Shown here: in pieces, positions 14,523-59,798 of the stretch
Position numbering within the stretch: position 1 is the first letter of the stretch
Layout: each line of letters opens with the position of its first letter
Source: Caldisphaera sp.
GTDB taxonomy: Archaea; Thermoproteota; Thermoprotei_A; Sulfolobales; Acidilobaceae
Direction: 5' to 3'
DNA: 64,000 nt
Assembly (NCBI GenBank): GCA_049971805.1
Contig: JBMFKU010000003.1
Span: 21,288 to 85,287, forward strand
Program-made: the position numbers and the translations under genes
Notes under the pieces: model-generated
Seen by the model: the letters and a program-made list of their open reading frames with translations, nothing else
Database searches by the model: none
Told to the model about the DNA's origin: nothing

Positions 14523-14745
14523 TTATATTAACAATAAGAAAATTTGCAATTTGGAAAAAATATACATAGTTAAATTTAATAGACTTTTATTATAAAATTT
14601 TTTTAAAGATGTTACTAATATAAAAAGATTTAAATATCTCATGCATTAATTCATGGTATTTCTTGTGACATAAGTTAATAGATTTGTTTAGATATAAGCC
14701 CTTTTGAAAATTAGTGAAGTTCTATATTGATAGTACAATTTCTCA
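14523..14745. repeat. Direct repeat copy 1 (~220 bp; 115 bp core at 14566-14680)
   Basis: The core matches 18431-18545 at 112/115 positions by manual alignment; flanks are recognisably similar but more diverged. Confidence 0.92.
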
Positions 14746-15771
14746 TTGATTTAAGTTTATTTTTCTTTTAGATATATAGATTATTGAATCATCATCTATT
14801 ATTTCTTCTTTTGGAGGATTTATTCTTAATCCCTTTGGGCCTCTAATTGCTAGTGGAAGTGCTCCTTTATTCGTAATAAAATCAGATATTTCTTTATATT
14901 TTTTGCCGTGCATCCATTGAGGTAATTTTTCTTCAAAAATTTCATCTCCAGATTTTGATGTTAATATTAAATCAATTACTTCTGCTGTGCCAGGATTTTC
15001 TAGCGTTCTTGATATTAACTTAGCAGAAACATAGCCTCTTATTATAAATTCATATATACCCACCAATTTCGCATAATTTTCACTTTCCTTGCTTAAAAGT
15101 TCCAATACTATATGGCTATTTGCATTAAGTTTTTTAATCATAATTCCTGCTAGTATTGATTTTGCATCTATGCCTGCCGGTGAACTTTTATCATCTTTGT
15201 CTGCTAATATTATGACTCCGTAAGCATTTTTTATTCCAGCTCTAATTAGGTCAGACTCTTTGAGACAAGTACCTCTTACAAATTCTATTTCATTTAAAGG
15301 TGGTGAGTCTTTGTCTGCTAATATAACTAGTTCATCTCTGCTTTGGTTTTTTAATTCCTTTACTAATTCTTCCCCAATTTCGTTCCAATTGCATATTATT
15401 ATATGATCTTCTTTTTTCACTTTAATTTCGCCAAGCCTTTTGGCTAAACTGGATTCTATCATTATATTTGTAAAGCTAGCAATAAATAAGCTTAATGTAC
15501 CAATACCCGTTAGCATTAAAAATACAGCGTTTATTCTACCCCAGAATGTTACAACGGGTGTATCTCCATAACCAACAGTCGTAATTGTTTGCATGACGAA
15601 CCAAAAACTATCAAAAATGGATTTTATACCAGAACTTGGAGCCTTTCTCTCGAGAAAGTATTCCGAAAATGTTCCATATATTATAATTGCTATTAAAATA
15701 ATAGTAATCTTTATTGTATTATTTCTTAAGAACTTTCTAAATTTAACTAAAAACGCATATATTGGTATCGT
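14743..15771 (-). CDS. MthK-like potassium channel (2TM pore plus RCK/TrkA-N domain); start extended to ACG at 15771
   Basis: TVGYGD filter and RCK domain. The open frame upstream of Met at 15594 encodes TM1 and the pore helix (IILIAIIIYGTF...IFDSFWFV) without any ATG/GTG/TTG. Confidence 0.85.
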   Translation of the reverse strand, partial: TIPIYAFLVKFRKFLRNNTIKITIILIAIIIYGTFSEYFLERKAPSSGIKSIFDSFWFVMQTITTVGYGDTPVVTFWGRINAVFLMLTGIGTLSLFIASFTNIMIESSLAKRLGEIKVKKEDHIIICNWNEIGEELVKELKNQSRDELVILADKDSPPLNEIEFVRGTCLKESDLIRAGIKNAYGVIILADKDDKSSPAGIDAKSILAGIMIKKLNANSHIVLELLSKESENYAKLVGIYEFIIRGYVSAKLISRTLENPGTAEVIDLILTSKSGDEIFEEKLPQWMHGKKYKEISDFITNKGALPLAIRGPKGLRINPPKEEIIDDDSIIYISKRKINLNQ

Positions 15772-15777
15772 ATTTGG

Positions 15778-18312
15778 TCACTCCTTTTTCTTTAGAATAT
15801 AAAATAAAAATGGTGATATTGAATAAAAAGCTAATAATTGAATAGGCATAGAGGGAAGAATTATGCAGATTGCTAATGGTATTAATAAGCCAAATTCTTT
15901 AATATTGCTGTAACCTTTTTTATAATAAAGTGCTAATAGTATAGTAATTAAAATATCAGTTAAAATTAAATAAATTGGATTAATGTTTAGAATATATCCT
16001 AAGCTATAATTCCCTTTTATCTTGTATAGTAATTGCATAAATCCATATTTGAAAAAGTTTTGAGATGTTATTGAAAAAATAGAAATTATGAAAGCCAAAG
16101 AGGTTAGCAAAGCAGAAATAAATTTATTAAAGCTGTTATTGAATTCATAGTATATATATATTAAGTAAAAAGGCATTGAAATAATAAACTGTGGATATAT
16201 TAATATAGATAATGAATAAATAATACCTGACAGGATAGAGTTATAATATAACAAGACAATTGATATTATCAATATAGATAATGAAATAGTAATAATAATG
16301 CTATTCATAAAAAATATTATTGATATATAAAAAGTCATTAAAATACCAATAATTAATAAAGGATCTTTATTATTTTTGACAGAAATGATTCCTACAAGTG
16401 TTATTGCTATTGCAAATAAAATTGAAGAATATATGTGCGAAGGTATATTTAACATTATTGCAGGCAAATAAGATATTGCTAATCCTGGTAAATAATCATA
16501 GACCGTTACATTATTCCATGAATTTCTTGTTGTATTATAAAATAGCGAGAATTTTTTTTGTGGATCTAATGAGTTTAAATTTAAAGGATTTTGAGTATAT
16601 GGAATAGACTCAACTAAATAACCAAATGTCTTGTCATTAAGAATGGATCTATAATAATTAAGGTTATAAGGATTGTGCAATTTAGTTATTGACATAGCTG
16701 CTAATTCCATAGCTATTTCTTGTGAACTTTGATATCCTCTTGATACTATAAAGAGAGATATTTGTGGGAAAAACCTTGATGCTAAAATACCAGTCAAAAT
16801 TAAGAGAGATAGAAATATAAAAGTCATTATTTTTGGATTATATCTTGAATTTATTTTGTCTGAACCTATAAAGAAAGTTATTAAGGATATGCCTAGAACA
16901 GCTAACAAACCAAGTATTAATAATAATAATGATAATTGTAATACATAAGATACCATCATTATTATTACAGATGAAAGGAGGAGAATAAATGTATAAATTG
17001 TCCAATTATTACTTATTGTATTTTTTTCGAAATAATTTTCTTTTTTGTTTAAGGATGTTGCATAAGCTATTATTGAAATTAAGGGAAACCACATATAGTA
17101 AATTGGTAGAGGCCTATAATAAAATAAGAATGCTATACTTGGAATGATGAGTCCAGAATATTTTAATTTATTATAAAATTTAAAATAAACTAATAAGCCT
17201 AGTAGTATTATTGATATAAATAATAAAGTATAAAATAACTTAGGAAGATCTATATTGAATTCATATAGTGATGACAATCCTGCTCCGATTGGCATTAAAT
17301 TTGAATCAATAGGCAGCAAAACACTTTTAATGAATTGATGGGGGCTTAGTAAAAGGAATGGTAAATTAATGGCTAATCCAGAAATTAAAAAGCCAGTAAT
17401 CATCTTTTTAATGTTATATTTTTCATGATATGCTGCAACGATAAAAAATAAAAACAACACACCTGCAGTCTCACGATACGATGTAGCTAAACCAAATAAT
17501 GCTCCAGATATTAATGGATAATCAACATATGCTATTGCTATAAGTGATGGAGCTAACCATCCTACAACAGGACTAAAGGCTATTGGTTCTCCTACAAATA
17601 AAAAAGAAGCACTAGCTATTATTAAGGGAAATAAAGTTTTATATGGTTCTTTGCTTTTTCTATATACCAAAAATAATGATATTGCTAGTATTATAGCATC
17701 GTAAATCTGTCTAGGGATATTAAGTATAACTTTAGGTAAATAATATAACATAGCAAATGATAGATAATCATAGGTAGATACAAATCCAATTATATGGCTT
17801 GCTATAAATGGAGGAGAGTTTTTGAATAGATACGTATAATCAGGAAATGAACCCTTGCTTATCAGATAACTTGTAAAATTAGCTAAATAGGGATTTTTAC
17901 CTTTTAGCAATAATTCAGCAGCTTGCTCTTGTATTATATAAGAATCAGAATACCCCCCTATTAACGAATAAAATACCTTTAATGATGAAGAATAAAAAAT
18001 CCCAGTTATTATAATTAGAGATGCCAATGAACCAATAACTAAGAAAGATGAAATTTTTAAATTCATCTTTGTTGGGTTAATGCTTAAGAAAAGAGTTAAA
18101 ATAGAAATAAAAATTAAAACAAAGAAAATAGATAATAACCAAAATTCTGGTGATTGTATGTAAATAGGCCATCCACTATACATTCCTATATAATTGTAAG
18201 GGGTTATGGATAAGTAATAGTAAACGGCAAATCCCATTAAGTTTAAAGATACCAATAACATTAATGCTCTATTAATTTCTTTGTTATTATTTTTATTGTT
18301 TATATTAACCAC
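15778..18312 (-). CDS. Polytopic membrane protein with two tandem GT-C (GT87/DUF2029-like) glycosyltransferase modules
   Basis: Many TM segments. Repeated motif AA..L...KNPY...YDYL..A..YLP at about aa 128-195 and aa 530-620. Confidence 0.65.
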   Translation of the reverse strand: MVNINNKNNNKEINRALMLLVSLNLMGFAVYYYLSITPYNYIGMYSGWPIYIQSPEFWLLSIFFVLIFISILTLFLSINPTKMNLKISSFLVIGSLASLIIITGIFYSSSLKVFYSLIGGYSDSYIIQEQAAELLLKGKNPYLANFTSYLISKGSFPDYTYLFKNSPPFIASHIIGFVSTYDYLSFAMLYYLPKVILNIPRQIYDAIILAISLFLVYRKSKEPYKTLFPLIIASASFLFVGEPIAFSPVVGWLAPSLIAIAYVDYPLISGALFGLATSYRETAGVLFLFFIVAAYHEKYNIKKMITGFLISGLAINLPFLLLSPHQFIKSVLLPIDSNLMPIGAGLSSLYEFNIDLPKLFYTLLFISIILLGLLVYFKFYNKLKYSGLIIPSIAFLFYYRPLPIYYMWFPLISIIAYATSLNKKENYFEKNTISNNWTIYTFILLLSSVIIMMVSYVLQLSLLLLILGLLAVLGISLITFFIGSDKINSRYNPKIMTFIFLSLLILTGILASRFFPQISLFIVSRGYQSSQEIAMELAAMSITKLHNPYNLNYYRSILNDKTFGYLVESIPYTQNPLNLNSLDPQKKFSLFYNTTRNSWNNVTVYDYLPGLAISYLPAIMLNIPSHIYSSILFAIAITLVGIISVKNNKDPLLIIGILMTFYISIIFFMNSIIITISLSILIISIVLLYYNSILSGIIYSLSILIYPQFIISMPFYLIYIYYEFNNSFNKFISALLTSLAFIISIFSITSQNFFKYGFMQLLYKIKGNYSLGYILNINPIYLILTDILITILLALYYKKGYSNIKEFGLLIPLAICIILPSMPIQLLAFYSISPFLFYILKKKE

Positions 18313-18390: not shown

Positions 18391-18610
18391 TTATATTAGG
18401 AATAAGAAAATTTATATTTTGGAAAAATATATAGTTAAATTTAATAGACTTTTATTATAAAATTTTTTAAAAGATGTTACTAATATAAAGAGATTTAAAT
18501 ATCTCATGCATTAATTCATGGTATTTCTTGTCACATAAGTTAATAAATAATCTTTAAATATAAATACTTTAGAAAATTGTCAAGTTCTTTATTAATAGTA
18601 AAATTCCTCA
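18391..18610. repeat. Direct repeat copy 2 (core 18431-18545)
   Basis: Same orientation and sequence as 14523-14745. Confidence 0.92.
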
Positions 18611-18682
18611 CGCAAACAAAACGGTAAATTTTTATTATTTTTTATTTCATATGTTTCTAAGTGATTGAAATGGTGATTTCAA

Positions 18683-19336
18683 ACGATCCCAAATATAACT
18701 GTTGTAACAACCACATATAATGAAGAAAATACGATTGGAACGTTAATTAGAAAAATTAAAGAGATAGATGATAAGATATTTGTAATAGTTGTAGATGATT
18801 CATCTATTGATAGAACAGCACAAATATCTAAAGAATTAGCTGATTTAACTATAGTGAAAAAAAGAGAAGGCCAAACAATAGGTCTTTATACTGGAATTAA
18901 ACTTGCTAAAACAAATATAGTGTTGACAATAGATGCTGACTTAGAAAACCCACCAGAATTGATTCCTTATATGATTAATGAATTTTTAAATAAAAGGTGC
19001 GATGTTTTAGTTGCATCTAGAAACAAGCTACCTAGAATTTCTGAAAAATTTACTTCATTAATTTTTAAACGTATATTTGGGATTACTGATATCTATTCAA
19101 ACTTTAGAGTTTTCAATAAAAAATGTTTCACTGATGACAAAATAAGATTAGGTGAAACATTTGGTTTAGAATTGTTAATAAAAACAAAGAAAAATAATTG
19201 TCGGTTTTGCGAAATAATATATCAATCAAAATATAGAAGAAAAAATCCAAGAATTGGTGGAATTATAAGATCTAACTTAAGAGCAACAGTCTCTACAACA
19301 AAATCTTTGTTTGGTTATTATTTTGTTTATAGATAA
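18683..19336 (+). CDS. GT2 glycosyltransferase, polyprenol-phosphate sugar synthase-like; start extended to ACG at 18683
   Basis: The in-frame region upstream of 18854 encodes ITVVTTTYNEEN and IVVDDSSIDRT; the body has TIDADLENPPE and SNFRVF. Confidence 0.85.
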   Translation, partial: TIPNITVVTTTYNEENTIGTLIRKIKEIDDKIFVIVVDDSSIDRTAQISKELADLTIVKKREGQTIGLYTGIKLAKTNIVLTIDADLENPPELIPYMINEFLNKRCDVLVASRNKLPRISEKFTSLIFKRIFGITDIYSNFRVFNKKCFTDDKIRLGETFGLELLIKTKKNNCRFCEIIYQSKYRRKNPRIGGIIRSNLRATVSTTKSLFGYYFVYR

Positions 19337-19438
19337 TGTGAATTGCATAAATATTAATTTTTAAATAAATTTATATAAGGGGTAAAAATATTGAAATGCA
19401 AAAATATGTTTAGAATTGGTTAGTAGGAGGTCTGTAGA

Positions 19439-20911
19439 TTGAATAGAGGAAGTGGTGTATTGTTGCCAATTTTTTCATTACCAGGAAACTGTGGAATAGG
19501 GGATTTTGGTAAATATGCATATCAATTTATAGATTTCTTGTATGATACAGGTCAAATGTATTGGCAAGTGTTACCAATGAATCCAATCGATCCTATTTAT
19601 GATAATTCTCCGTATAGCCCTTTATCATCATTCGCAGGAAATCCTCTTTTCATAAGCATAGAAGGTTTAATATCAGATGGGTATTTGAGCAAAAATGAAT
19701 CTTGTTATACTAATGAAGGAAATTATATCGATTATAATAATGTAAAACAATTAAAATACAATTTTTTTAGAAAAGCTTTTTCCAATTTTAGGCCTAAAAA
19801 CGATTATTATAGATTTTTAGAAGAAAATAAATATTGGATTGAGGATTTTTCATTGTTTATTTCTATAAGAGATTACTTCAATAAACCATTAATGTTATGG
19901 CCAAGAGAAGTAAAAATTAGAGAAAAAGAAAGTATAAGAGAATTAGAAAACAAACTGAAAAATGAAATAGAATTTAATAAGTTCCTTCAATATCAATTTT
20001 TTAGGCAATGGTTCAACTTAAAAAGATACGCTAATAAGAGAAAAATATCAATAATAGGAGATTTACCAATATATGTAAACCATGATAGTGGTGATGTATG
20101 GTCGCATCCTAATATATTTAAATTAGATGATAATTTAAATCCAAGATTTGTTTCAGGAGTTCCACCAGATTATTTTAGTAAATACGGTCAGCTATGGAAT
20201 ACACCGGTCTTTGATTGGAATCAATTAAGAAAAGATAATTTTTTATGGTGGATTAAAAGATACAATCATTTAATGAAAATCTTTGATTACATCAGACTTG
20301 ATCATTTTAGAGGATATTCAGCATATTGGGAAGTCCCATATGGAGAAAAGACTGCAGTAAATGGAAAGTGGATTAAAGCATATGGTTTTGAACTTTTCTT
20401 CCAACTTAAAAGGCTTAGAAGCGATTTAAGAATAATTGCAGAAGACTTGGGTTATATAACCCAAGATGTTAAAAACCTAAGAAATTACTATTCATTTCCA
20501 GGCATGAAAGTATTACAATTTGCATTTGATGGCAATCCTAAAAATGAATATAAACCGCATAACTATGATAGTACAAACTACTTTGTATATACTGCTACTC
20601 ATGATAATAATACATCGATAGGATGGTATCAGAATGAGGCAACCAAAAAAACCAAAATTGATTTTATTAAATACACGAGAATAAATAACATAAAAGAGGT
20701 AAATTGGGCATTTATTAGACTTGCTTTAGGCTCTATAGCAAAGACTTCTATAATACCAATTCAAGATATATTAGGTCTAGGCTCGAGTGCTAGAATTAAT
20801 ACACCGGGCACAACAGGTAATAATTGGAGATGGAAATTAACAAATCTTTATATTCCAAGATATGTAAAATCAAGATTATATGATTTAACAAAAATCTATG
20901 GCAGAATTTAG
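19439..20911 (+). CDS. malQ: 4-alpha-glucanotransferase (amylomaltase, GH77)
   Basis: GVLLPIFSLP, SPYS, GDLPIYV, GVPPDYFS..GQLW, RLDHFRG, IAEDLG and THDN motifs. Confidence 0.96.
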   Translation: MNRGSGVLLPIFSLPGNCGIGDFGKYAYQFIDFLYDTGQMYWQVLPMNPIDPIYDNSPYSPLSSFAGNPLFISIEGLISDGYLSKNESCYTNEGNYIDYNNVKQLKYNFFRKAFSNFRPKNDYYRFLEENKYWIEDFSLFISIRDYFNKPLMLWPREVKIREKESIRELENKLKNEIEFNKFLQYQFFRQWFNLKRYANKRKISIIGDLPIYVNHDSGDVWSHPNIFKLDDNLNPRFVSGVPPDYFSKYGQLWNTPVFDWNQLRKDNFLWWIKRYNHLMKIFDYIRLDHFRGYSAYWEVPYGEKTAVNGKWIKAYGFELFFQLKRLRSDLRIIAEDLGYITQDVKNLRNYYSFPGMKVLQFAFDGNPKNEYKPHNYDSTNYFVYTATHDNNTSIGWYQNEATKKTKIDFIKYTRINNIKEVNWAFIRLALGSIAKTSIIPIQDILGLGSSARINTPGTTGNNWRWKLTNLYIPRYVKSRLYDLTKIYGRI

Positions 20912-24411: not shown

Positions 24412-24548
24412 CTTTATTTCATCAAGATATTAAAATCACAGTAGCAATTTTAAGCTTTATTAATTTAAAAAATTTAGTAGATTGCTAAGGTTTAAAATGC
24501 GCTATTATGTTTTATAGGAACTAGAAGGTTACAAAAAGGTGAAGAAAA

Positions 24549-25379
24549 ATTAACAAAAAATTTACAGAGCTACTAACTATATACATTATTGCTTCTGTAT
24601 TTCTGTATTTTTTTGCTAAGGAAGGAACCACATATGCAGATCCCTCTCTTTTAATGATGATTAGATATTTGATATCCGGTCTTATTCTTTTCTCTATATC
24701 AAAAAAATTTGTTATTAATAAAAATGTTTTATTATTATCTGTATTTACAACTGTTAGTACTCTTTTTTGGGGATATGGACTTGTCTATGTTAGCCCGGCA
24801 GTATCTGCAGTGCTAAGCTATACAATGCCTCTTTTTAGTTTAATTTTTGCCAACGCTATGTTGAAAGAAAAGGCAACTTTATTAGAAATAACAGGCTTAA
24901 TAATTGGATTTCTTGGAATTGGTATCTATGGTTATCCATTAGTTAAGGGTTTCACAAAAATAGGGGTAGTATTGACTATAATTAATGCAATATTTTGGGC
25001 TTTATTTAGCATTTACTATAGAAAATTATCTAATTATGATCCGATATCGTTAAATGCTACACAATTTTTGCTAGGTTCTTTATTTATGGGTATTGTTAGC
25101 ATATTTACTTCTTATAAAGATTTTTATTTCTATTGGAATGTAAAGCTATTAGAAAGCATTATCTATATCTCAACGATCGGTGGAGCATTTCAATTTTTGG
25201 TTTGGAATTATATGTTAAGGTTAGAAAGGGTTAATAGAGTTACTATGTTGGCTTACATAGTCCCGATTGGAACTACGATAGCTCAAGCTTTTCTATTTAA
25301 AAAAATTCCAAATATTATTGAGATATTTGGCTTATTTGTTATAATAATTGGTGTAATCATAAGTAGATATAAGAAATAA
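24549..25379 (+). CDS. EamA/DMT family transporter; start extended to ATT at 24549
   Basis: AVLSYTMPLF, LIIGFLG and LAYIVPI motifs. The first TM helix and FAKEG..YADP lie upstream of the Met at 24654. Confidence 0.85.
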   Translation: MNKKFTELLTIYIIASVFLYFFAKEGTTYADPSLLMMIRYLISGLILFSISKKFVINKNVLLLSVFTTVSTLFWGYGLVYVSPAVSAVLSYTMPLFSLIFANAMLKEKATLLEITGLIIGFLGIGIYGYPLVKGFTKIGVVLTIINAIFWALFSIYYRKLSNYDPISLNATQFLLGSLFMGIVSIFTSYKDFYFYWNVKLLESIIYISTIGGAFQFLVWNYMLRLERVNRVTMLAYIVPIGTTIAQAFLFKKIPNIIEIFGLFVIIIGVIISRYKK

Positions 25380-30088: not shown

Positions 30089-30198
30089 ATACTATGTTAA
30101 GTATTAATATATTTAATTTATAATGGTTATTTAGTTATAAGAAGAAAAGTTTATAACTGTTAATTGGATAAGCTATTATTGTTTTATGTGGCTGTAAG

Positions 30199-30558
30199 GT
30201 GGGAAATACGGAATCAATAATTAAAAATGATGTTAACAAACATAATGAATTTGATATTAGAGTAAAATTTGTTTATAGTTATTTATTAAATATTAAAAGT
30301 GGATTAATAAATAAAAATCATTTTTGTGATGATTTTAATTGGAATAATATAGACTGCAGTAATATTAGAAAGGTCATTGAATGGATAGCATGTAAAAGTG
30401 CATTGGAAATATATCCTGACAATTATTATATTCATATAGAGGATAAGACTATAATAAGATCAATAAACGAGGCATTAAATAAATGTGAAAATGATTTCAT
30501 AAGAGAGGCTTTACTAAACATGGAAAAGAAATTAAATACCTATGTAAATTCATTATGA
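30199..30558 (+). CDS. Hypothetical protein
   Basis: 119 aa ORF with SD AAGGTGG. Confidence 0.5.
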   Translation: MGNTESIIKNDVNKHNEFDIRVKFVYSYLLNIKSGLINKNHFCDDFNWNNIDCSNIRKVIEWIACKSALEIYPDNYYIHIEDKTIIRSINEALNKCENDFIREALLNMEKKLNTYVNSL

Positions 30559-58110: not shown

Positions 58111-58238
58111 TCACCGAAGTTTTTGCTTAATAGCCACAATTAATCTTAATTTTTAAGCTTATAAGTTTTGTTTTCTTTTGATTTATTATTGTGAAATTAG
58201 AAAAACGTATTATTTAATGATAACTAAATAAATAAAAG

Positions 58239-59798
58239 GTGATAAAGACGAGCATATGCCCAGGATTTTTAAAAAATCCAGAAGTCATGAGCATTGAAGA
58301 TATTAGAGCATACGAATCTAATACTATATGGAATGGTATTCCATTGTTGTTATTAATGGAAAATGCTGGAAGATCTATAGCTGATGCTATAGAATGTAAA
58401 CTAGGAAATTTAGAATCGAGAAAAGTTGTTATATTTGCTGGTAAAGGGGGTAATGGAGGAGACGCCTTAGTTGCTGGTAGGCATTTAGCAGCTAGAGGAG
58501 CTAATGTAACAGCTTATTTGTTATACGATATTAGATTTGTTGATCATAAAGATGCTCTATTAAATCTTAAGGCTTTACAAAATTCTAAACATCTAAAAAT
58601 AGTCCATCTAGAAGATCCAAGAGAATATGAGCCTGTAGAGGCAGATGTGCTTATAGATGGTATACTAGGAATTGGAGTGAAAGGAAAATTAAGAGAACCG
58701 ATAGCAAGTGCATTAAGGGCTTTCAATTCATCTAAGGGATACAGGGTTGCTGTAGATGTACCAACAGGTGTTGATCCTGAAACTGGAAATGTTGCAGAAG
58801 GTTCCGCAATAGTTGATTTAACCGTTACAATGCATGCATTAAAACCAGGACTATTAAGTGAAAAAGTCAAACATTATGTTGGTGAATTATTAGTTGCAGA
58901 AATAGGTATGATAAAAGATTCTCAAATATTTGCAGGTCCTGGCGATGTAGTCATTAGAATACCTAAAAGACCAAAGGACGCAATAAAAGGAGGTAATGGA
59001 AAGGTATTGACGATAGGAGGTTCATATCATTATTTTGGAGCACCATTTTATGCAGCATCATCGGCATTGATAGCTGGGGCAGATTTATCATTTTTAGCTT
59101 CTCCAGAAAAGGTAGCTTATTCTGCGTCTCAAAACAATCCAGGAATTATTCCTGTTCCTTTAGAAGGGGATTACTTGAACAAAAACCATGTTAGCATGTT
59201 ATTAGAGGAAGCAAAAAGAGTTGATGTTGTTTCAATTGGACCTGGATTAGGCAATAGAGAAGAAACAAAGGAGGCAGTGATAGAGATAATAAATTCCTTA
59301 AGAAATAAACCCATTGTTATCGATGCTGATGCGCTAAAAGCATTGGCAGAAAAAGAATTAAAGCTATGGAAAGATGTTGTTTTAACATTGCATAAAGGAG
59401 ATGCCGCATTATTAGCAAAAAATGAAGGAAGCCAAGAAGAATTAGCAAAAATAATCTCTAGCAATTATTCGTCTACAGTAATAGTTAAGGCTCCGATAGA
59501 TGTAATCTGCTCTCCAGAAGGCATGTGTAGGTATAATAAAACCGGTCATCCTGCTATGACAGTTGCTGGAACGTGTGTTGTGTTAACAGGTATTATAGCA
59601 GGTTTTATGGCAAGAAAAATTTCTATAGAGAAAAAAATGAATCCGATTCACATAGTTTCAGCTGCAGCATATATTTTAGGAAGATCAGGCGAATTAGCTG
59701 TAAAAGAAAAAGGTGATAATATAACTGCATTAGATGTGATGCAAAAAATACCCCAAGCTATGCTGGAATCAGAGGGATATATAGGTGGAGGAGGCTAA
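58239..59798 (+). CDS. nnr: Bifunctional NAD(P)HX epimerase/dehydratase (YjeF/Nnr); dehydratase motifs degenerate
   Basis: LMENAG, GKGGNGGD, DGILGIG and VDVPTG in the epimerase domain; IGPGLG and IDADAL in the dehydratase domain. Confidence 0.9.
   Translation: MIKTSICPGFLKNPEVMSIEDIRAYESNTIWNGIPLLLLMENAGRSIADAIECKLGNLESRKVVIFAGKGGNGGDALVAGRHLAARGANVTAYLLYDIRFVDHKDALLNLKALQNSKHLKIVHLEDPREYEPVEADVLIDGILGIGVKGKLREPIASALRAFNSSKGYRVAVDVPTGVDPETGNVAEGSAIVDLTVTMHALKPGLLSEKVKHYVGELLVAEIGMIKDSQIFAGPGDVVIRIPKRPKDAIKGGNGKVLTIGGSYHYFGAPFYAASSALIAGADLSFLASPEKVAYSASQNNPGIIPVPLEGDYLNKNHVSMLLEEAKRVDVVSIGPGLGNREETKEAVIEIINSLRNKPIVIDADALKALAEKELKLWKDVVLTLHKGDAALLAKNEGSQEELAKIISSNYSSTVIVKAPIDVICSPEGMCRYNKTGHPAMTVAGTCVVLTGIIAGFMARKISIEKKMNPIHIVSAAAYILGRSGELAVKEKGDNITALDVMQKIPQAMLESEGYIGGGG

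Follow-up and report, generated by a model that had tools for sequence, protein, structure and literature searches.

Two genes in a genome of Caldisphaera sp., a hot-spring archaeon, raise the question of which codon starts their translation. The window, by which we mean the whole stretch of 64,000 nucleotides that was analysed, carries a gene for a GT2-family glycosyltransferase (GT2) and one for a K+ channel. In each of them the first canonical start (ATG, GTG or TTG) lies deep within the conserved protein, and an ACG stands a few nucleotides behind a Shine-Dalgarno (SD) sequence. An earlier note on this DNA had proposed that both genes start at these ACGs. It is most likely, as far as sequence comparison can tell, that ACG starts extend beyond the two genes and are a form of known near-cognate initiation. 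We put the probability that this archaeon and its genus use ACG as a genuine, rare initiation codon, positioned by the SD, at roughly 0.7. The features discussed are collected in Table 1.

The genome under study (G000) is a 1.52-Mb assembly of 66 contigs with 31% G+C. Among its protein matches, the best-named ones belong to Caldisphaera. It was compared with the genomes of six other species that databases assign to this genus (G001 to G006), making seven in all. G005 is a complete genome in one contig, and the whole of it was scanned in the same way as G000.

Table 1. Positions in the window of the proposed near-cognate starts and of the features around them
Feature	Position	Strand	Remarks
SD core GGTGA of GT2 gene	18672..18676	+	GT2 frame opens after its TGA, an in-frame stop
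Spacer tttcaa	18677-18682	+	Between GGTGA and ACG
ACG, proposed GT2 initiation codon	18683..18685	+	6 nt behind GGTGA
GT2-family glycosyltransferase gene	18683..19336	+	217 codons plus stop
Out-of-frame ORF encoding MVISNDPKYNCCNNHI and a stop	18670..18720	+	ATG at 18670; 16 codons; overlaps GT2 SD and start
GGAGTGA, SD of channel gene	15778..15784	-	Its TGA (15780-78) is in frame with the channel
ACG, proposed channel initiation codon	15769..15771	-	6 nt behind AGTGA
K+ channel gene with RCK/TrkA domain	14743..15771	-	342 codons plus stop
YjeF-like gene	58238-59798	+	GGTGA, 5 nt, ACG (58248-50); 516 codons; third proposed ACG start in the window
Gene for 276-codon membrane protein	24538-25379	+	GGTGA (24538), 6 nt, ATT (24549-51) as candidate start

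Two Genes with ACG in the Start Position

At the start of the GT2 gene the letters and coordinates given by the earlier note, GGTGA-tttcaa-ACG ATC CCA AAT with the C of ACG at 18684, check out. The ATC (18686-88), CCA and AAT are followed by ATA, ACT, GTT and GTA. The frame opens only at 18677 and runs for 219 codons to a stop at 19334-36. A frame scan agrees with the earlier note that no canonical start comes before 18854; the GTG at that position is the first in-frame ATG, GTG or TTG, 57 codons past the ACG and within the conserved domain. The N-terminus had also been called essential, and this is borne out by the Pfam profile PF00535, which matches the protein with an E-value of 3.8e-22 and 79.4 bits (cut-off 23.3). 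Residues 6-115, counted from the ACG, align with profile positions 1-117. Since the match sets in at residue 6 with the first position of the profile, the N-terminus is not dispensable, and a start at 18854 would cost the protein the first third of the domain. The protein is 58-62% identical to its orthologs in the genus over the full length, and some of its JGI homologs are named dolichol-phosphate mannosyltransferase. At the SD-defined start, the ACG of G000 corresponds to ATG in G002 and G003 and to TTG in G005 and G006. The ortholog starts lie 5 codons ahead of the conserved segment [IV][ST]V[IV]TTTYNEE, and the ACG of G000 lies 4 codons ahead of it.

This layout is not an assembly indel. 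Positions 18502-19500 were compared with a contig assembled separately from a public hot-spring run, at a depth of about 80, and showed 0 differences and 0 gaps; the run may be the source sample of the G000 assembly. The match excludes an assembler-specific slip at the GT2 start and leaves room for a biological variant.

The channel gene has the same arrangement of SD, 6 nt and ACG, as had been described before. Read on the minus strand, GGAGTGA is followed by ccaaat, ACG (15771-69), ATA, CCA and ATA. Its first canonical start lies 59 codons past the ACG, at the selectivity filter MQTITTVGYGD and after the first membrane helix. Pfam matches to the protein are Ion_trans_2 (residues 25-105), Slo-like_RCK and TrkA_N. 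The orthologs in G001 and G004, at 61% identity, have TTG where G000 has ACG; there GGAGGTG is followed by 7 nt, or by 6 when GGTGC is taken as the counterpart of GGTGA, and then by TTG, and the N-terminus is two codons shorter. The search gave no match to the channel in G002, G003 and G006 at E <= 1e-20. The counterpart in G005 (L025, G005:C1:972535-973518) is a pseudogene, the match being interrupted by 18 stops. The TGA at 15778-15780 of the minus strand is also the stop of an upstream ORF for an 844-aa membrane protein, so that this stop sits inside the channel SD and in the channel frame, an overlap which we judge to be due to chance.

Spacing behind GGTGA

The SD sequence was defined empirically because the 3' end of the 16S rRNA was missed in the assembly by pattern search. 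Among 442 unambiguous starts in G000, the motif that prevails 4-7 nt upstream is GGTGA, with a peak at a spacer of 6 (47 starts), and AGTGA is found at spacer 6 in 5 of the 442. Fixed SD motifs were used throughout; a position weight matrix with a single spacing blurred spacers 5 and 6. The spacing was then counted over every GGTGA in G000 that is followed by a triplet opening at least 100 codons, with an in-frame stop no more than 8 codons upstream. Canonical starts make up 25/48 rows at spacer 4, 79/95 at spacer 5, 85/112 at spacer 6 and 17/46 at spacer 7, and they number 0-7 per spacer at spacers 0-3 and 8-12 (7/112 at spacer 9). The canonical starts of G005 peak likewise, with 247 at spacer 5 and 164 at spacer 6. 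Both the GT2 and the channel ACG stand at spacer 6, the distance that is proper to start codons in this genome.

A Genome-Wide Scan for ACG

The earlier note had suggested scanning the genome for an ACG 5-6 nt behind an SD sequence. Behind each NGTGA or GGTGN, the scan took the triplets that begin an open frame of 100 codons or more, with an in-frame stop no more than 12 codons upstream. A site was kept if it had no ATG, GTG or TTG from the upstream stop to 12 codons downstream, where a GTG inside the SD was not counted. In G000 this left 226 rows. The 41 rows at spacers 5-6 hold 18 near-cognates of ATG, 6 of which are ACG; the 185 rows at other spacers hold 24 near-cognates and 0 ACG. The result is thus positive (6/41 vs 0/185), with Fisher p-values of 2.6e-5 for ACG and 2.4e-5 for all near-cognates that are only indicative, since the rows include several spacers of the same sites and are not independent. 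In G005, 14 of the 34 rows at spacers 5-6 are near-cognates (ATT 8, ATA 3, ACG 2 and CTG 1), and the 164 rows at other spacers contain 30 near-cognates and 0 ACG. The codon itself is rare, with a share of 0.28% in long ORFs against 2.2% for ACA. The layout of SD, 6 nt and ACG is more than chance. When triplets were counted behind all GGTGA genome-wide, without conditioning on ORF starts, no ACG excess appeared; such counts are dominated by intragenic GGTGA, and the conditioning is therefore needed.

Five of the six ACG candidates in G000 were accepted as proposed starts. The sixth, at 30208 of the window (GGTGG at 30198, 5 nt, ACG; plus strand, 116-codon ORF), was rejected. Its G005 ortholog has ACC in that place, and an in-frame GTG-GGA is common to the two genomes, which makes the GTG the likelier start. 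That three of the five accepted starts lie within the window is a post hoc count, since two of them were the reason for choosing the window. A search of orthologs for conservation upstream of the first canonical start was too noisy to give a count, owing to antisense shadow ORFs. A further ACG candidate was seen behind GAGGGGA on contig C30 of G000.

Exchange of ACG with Canonical Starts

The strongest evidence that ACG may serve as a start comes from orthologs. Across the seven species of the genus, six genes carry, at one and the same SD-defined site, ACG in some genomes and ATG, GTG or TTG in others, and for both GT2 and the channel the codons found there, ATG or TTG, agree with the proposal that these genes start at ACG. 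A SPOUT-like gene of 348 aa (contig C10) reads ACG AGY AAA in G000, G002, G003, G005 and G006 and ATG AGT AAG in G001 and G004, while neighbouring synonymous sites differ between species. A membrane protein on contig C29 has ACG in G000, G002 and G003, GTG in G005, TTG in G006 and ATG in G001 and G004. In an aldehyde-dehydrogenase-like gene the ACG is found in G005, facing ATG in G000, G002 and G003 and TTG in G006. The third gene of the window with an ACG, which we take from its sequence to be a YjeF-like NAD(P)HX repair gene, has ACG in G000 and ATG (4) or TTG (2) in the other six genomes, whose SD-defined starts are at most one or two codons away from that of the ACG.

An in-frame stop lies one or two codons before the ACG in GT2, the channel, the SPOUT-like and aldehyde-dehydrogenase-like genes of G005, and the C29 protein of G002 and G003, which leaves no other start in those genes. 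In the aldehyde-dehydrogenase-like gene of G005 this stop is a TAG two codons before the ACG, and the next canonical start follows 91 codons later. The C29 frame in G002 and G003 opens after the TGA of the SD, two codons before the ACG. Where the spacer is 5, the GTG of the SD always shares the frame of the ACG, and it is ruled out only where a stop follows. This is the case in the SPOUT-like gene of G005, where a TAA after the GTG means that the GTG cannot be the start. In some other cases with spacer 5, namely the YjeF-like, SPOUT-like and C29 genes of G000, the GTG inside the SD may be the start. The SPOUT-like gene of a genome from another genus (G016, 69% identity) has GGTGC, 5 nt and ACG one codon further upstream, and there too the GTG inside the SD is a possible start.

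Other Near-Cognate Codons in the Start Slot

Codons other than ACG are also found in this position. The ATT at 24549 of the window, the apparent start of a 276-codon membrane protein, also stands in the G005 ortholog; the next canonical start is 35 codons further on. A candidate ATT start in a metallophosphoesterase-like gene (G000 contig C2) and a candidate CTG start in the gene of a 937-aa protein (G000 contig C16) are kept in G005 as well. Several of the ATA candidates in G000 have an ATG nearby in G005, one example being an asparagine-synthase-like gene on contig C9. The best reading of these candidates, taken from their placement and conservation, is that ATT, ATA and CTG may be used like ACG behind SD sites.

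Alternative Explanations

It is conceivable, if unlikely, that initiation takes place at the next isoleucine codon, which would be ATC 18686 or ATA 18695 in GT2 and ATA 15768-66 in the channel. Starts at isoleucine codons are allowed by the standard bacterial and archaeal table, the ACG is directly followed by ATC or ATA in both genes, ATA and ATT fill the start slot elsewhere in G000, and the public call of the GT2 gene begins at ATA 18695. The distances speak against such a start. In GT2 the distance from GGTGA is 9 nt for the ATC and 18 nt for the ATA, and the ATA of the channel stands at spacer 9, where canonical starts are few in comparison with spacer 6 (7/112 vs 85/112). The other genes with an ACG start, moreover, have no isoleucine codon after the ACG.

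A less probable explanation, to which we give little weight, is that site-specific C-to-U editing of the mRNA turns the genomic ACG into AUG and that initiation then proceeds normally at AUG. The exchange of ACG in some species with ATG in others at the same site is the pattern left by edited start codons in plant organelles, and a CTG could likewise become TTG. The ATT and ATA codons in the same slot cannot become AUG by a C-to-U change, and as they too fill the start slot, editing is not needed to explain it. Internal codons were also compared in 1206 pairs of G000 and G005 orthologs. An internal ACG is aligned with Met in G005 in 14/1031 cases (1.4%), with no clear excess over the other Thr codons (ACA 81/7998, 1.0%; ACT 44/5368, 0.8%; ACC 8/1513, about 0.5%). 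Editing confined to start codons may still occur.

The earlier note had drawn attention to ACGATnCCAA as a context shared by GT2 and the channel. The two genes do have it in common, but as a motif it does not stand, since the genome contains 4 copies on both strands where about 8-9 are expected from our own composition arithmetic, and the codons after other ACG starts are AGT, AGC, GGG, AAA or GAA. We thus treat the sharing as a coincidence. Among the orthologs and genes compared, no sequence apart from the SD is common to the surroundings of the ACG starts, which also counts against editing. To our knowledge, mRNA editing is not known in archaea; were it to operate here, it would be the first mRNA editing in Archaea, and the exchange of ACG with ATG would represent the gain and loss of editing sites.

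The earlier note had also weighed a +1 frameshift in GT2, in which translation would start at ATG 18670 and then undergo a programmed shift, or would yield a 16-residue peptide ahead of a dead gene. The out-of-frame ATG and its own GTGA are real, in the form of AGTGA (18660-64) 5 nt upstream of a reading frame for 16 residues, and frame 1 from GTG 18673 loosely resembles, by eye and at the DNA level, the N-terminus of G006. The frameshift itself is disfavoured and we regard it as very improbable. None of the orthologs in the genus (0/4) begins with MVISNDP or has a start in two frames; all are single-frame and begin with MTYNE, METTR, MELTK and MIYDK. The GT2 frame of 217 codons is intact and conserved, the depth-80 contig shows no indel, no conserved shift site was seen, and the same ACG layout is present in genes that have no upstream out-of-frame ORF. 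An ATG in or just before the GT2 SD is found in 4/5 genomes including G000, in frames and with lengths that differ, and the 16-residue peptide is therefore not conserved. It is possible that the small ORF at 18670 is translated and may interfere with the start at ACG. Read-through of TGA, giving an MKW + GT2 fusion or joining the 844-aa ORF to the channel, was considered and rejected, the long ORFs being intact under the standard code.

Relation to Known Systems

Initiation at ACG has eukaryotic and viral examples in AAV VP2 and the C' protein of Sendai virus. The proposed Caldisphaera starts resemble these in the ACG itself, presumably in the use of the initiator tRNA with one mismatch, and in an efficiency that would be below that of AUG. 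The eukaryotic ACG is reached by scanning and is favoured by Kozak context, whereas the Caldisphaera ACG stands at a fixed 5-6 nt behind the SD, is conserved, and is exchanged with ATG, GTG and TTG. Eukaryotes, whose initiation factors are similar to those of archaea, do use ACG. ACG is also mentioned in the available part of a review (PMC4705826).

The bacterial genes infC and pcnB have conserved AUU start codons. Like the ACG starts proposed here, these are non-canonical starts behind an SD, which selection has kept in different species and which gene finders overlook or place wrongly. The AUU of infC and pcnB differs from AUG at the third base, in contrast to the middle-base mismatch of ACG. 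In infC the codon serves autoregulation through IF3, whereas the six Caldisphaera genes have unrelated functions and show no evident regulatory logic. Editing in plant organelles also offers the likeness of a genomic ACG where relatives begin with ATG, but it does not account for the ATT and ATA starts that Caldisphaera has in the same slot. ACG is absent from the start codons of the standard bacterial and archaeal table, and as a result gene finders shorten proteins of this kind or pick the wrong start, as they did with ATA 18695 in GT2.

Near-cognate initiation has been met in another archaeon. Excerpts of a ribosome-profiling study of Haloferax volcanii place about 30% of the putative alternative initiation sites at near-cognate codons, which the study set aside (PMC7261190). 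H. volcanii is thus also an archaeon with initiation peaks at near-cognates, but these excerpts give neither named codons nor conservation for them (PMC7261190). H. volcanii is mostly leaderless, as opposed to the SD-led starts of the crenarchaeon described here. The literature searched, which covered few subscription journals, yielded no account of an archaeal gene that starts at ACG.

Initiation Machinery

If ACG is an initiation codon, the likely course of events follows from the layout. Pairing with a GGTGA-type SD would place the small ribosomal subunit on the mRNA, the triplet 5-6 nt downstream would then enter the P site, and the ordinary initiator tRNA (anticodon CAU) would accept ACG despite the mismatch in the middle of the codon. 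Translation of GT2 would then begin at 18683 and that of the channel at 15771. Three points of this course are inferred: decoding of ACG by the initiator tRNA, Met as the first residue, and an efficiency below that of AUG. A mismatch at the middle base normally makes for a poor initiator. The ATC or ATA right after the ACG could offer another site of initiation, though at a poor spacing.

A single initiator tRNA was found in G000, and its anticodon is CAU. A blastn search for a second initiator-like tRNA able to read ACG returned only weak partial matches to other tRNAs. ARAGORN did not recover a tRNA-Thr(CGU), and its intron-aware run was messy. The same program listed two 'tRNA-???' with four-base anticodons on contigs C2 and C11 of G000, which are probably wrongly parsed intron-containing tRNAs.

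The genus Caldisphaera has cultured members, so the claim of ACG starts is directly testable. Confirmation would mean that an SD-led initiation complex of archaea puts up with a mismatch at the middle base often enough for selection to keep an ACG for a long time, as in the one gene that has it in five species. It would also provide a natural system for the study of how aIF1 and aIF2 set the stringency of start-codon choice. Loss of aIF1 was considered as a source of relaxed stringency and rejected, as the SUI1 gene is present in G000. The presence of aIF1 counts against initiation at ACG, given the discrimination of Sulfolobus aIF1 against a non-AUG codon that is described in the available part of a review, which has archaea using AUG, GUG and UUG and Sulfolobus aIF1 rejecting AUU (PMC4705826). 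The aIF1 (SUI1) gene itself, on the minus strand of contig C9 (L153), has its ATG 12 nt behind GGTGG, a spacing that is unusual here, and an AAG at spacer 6.
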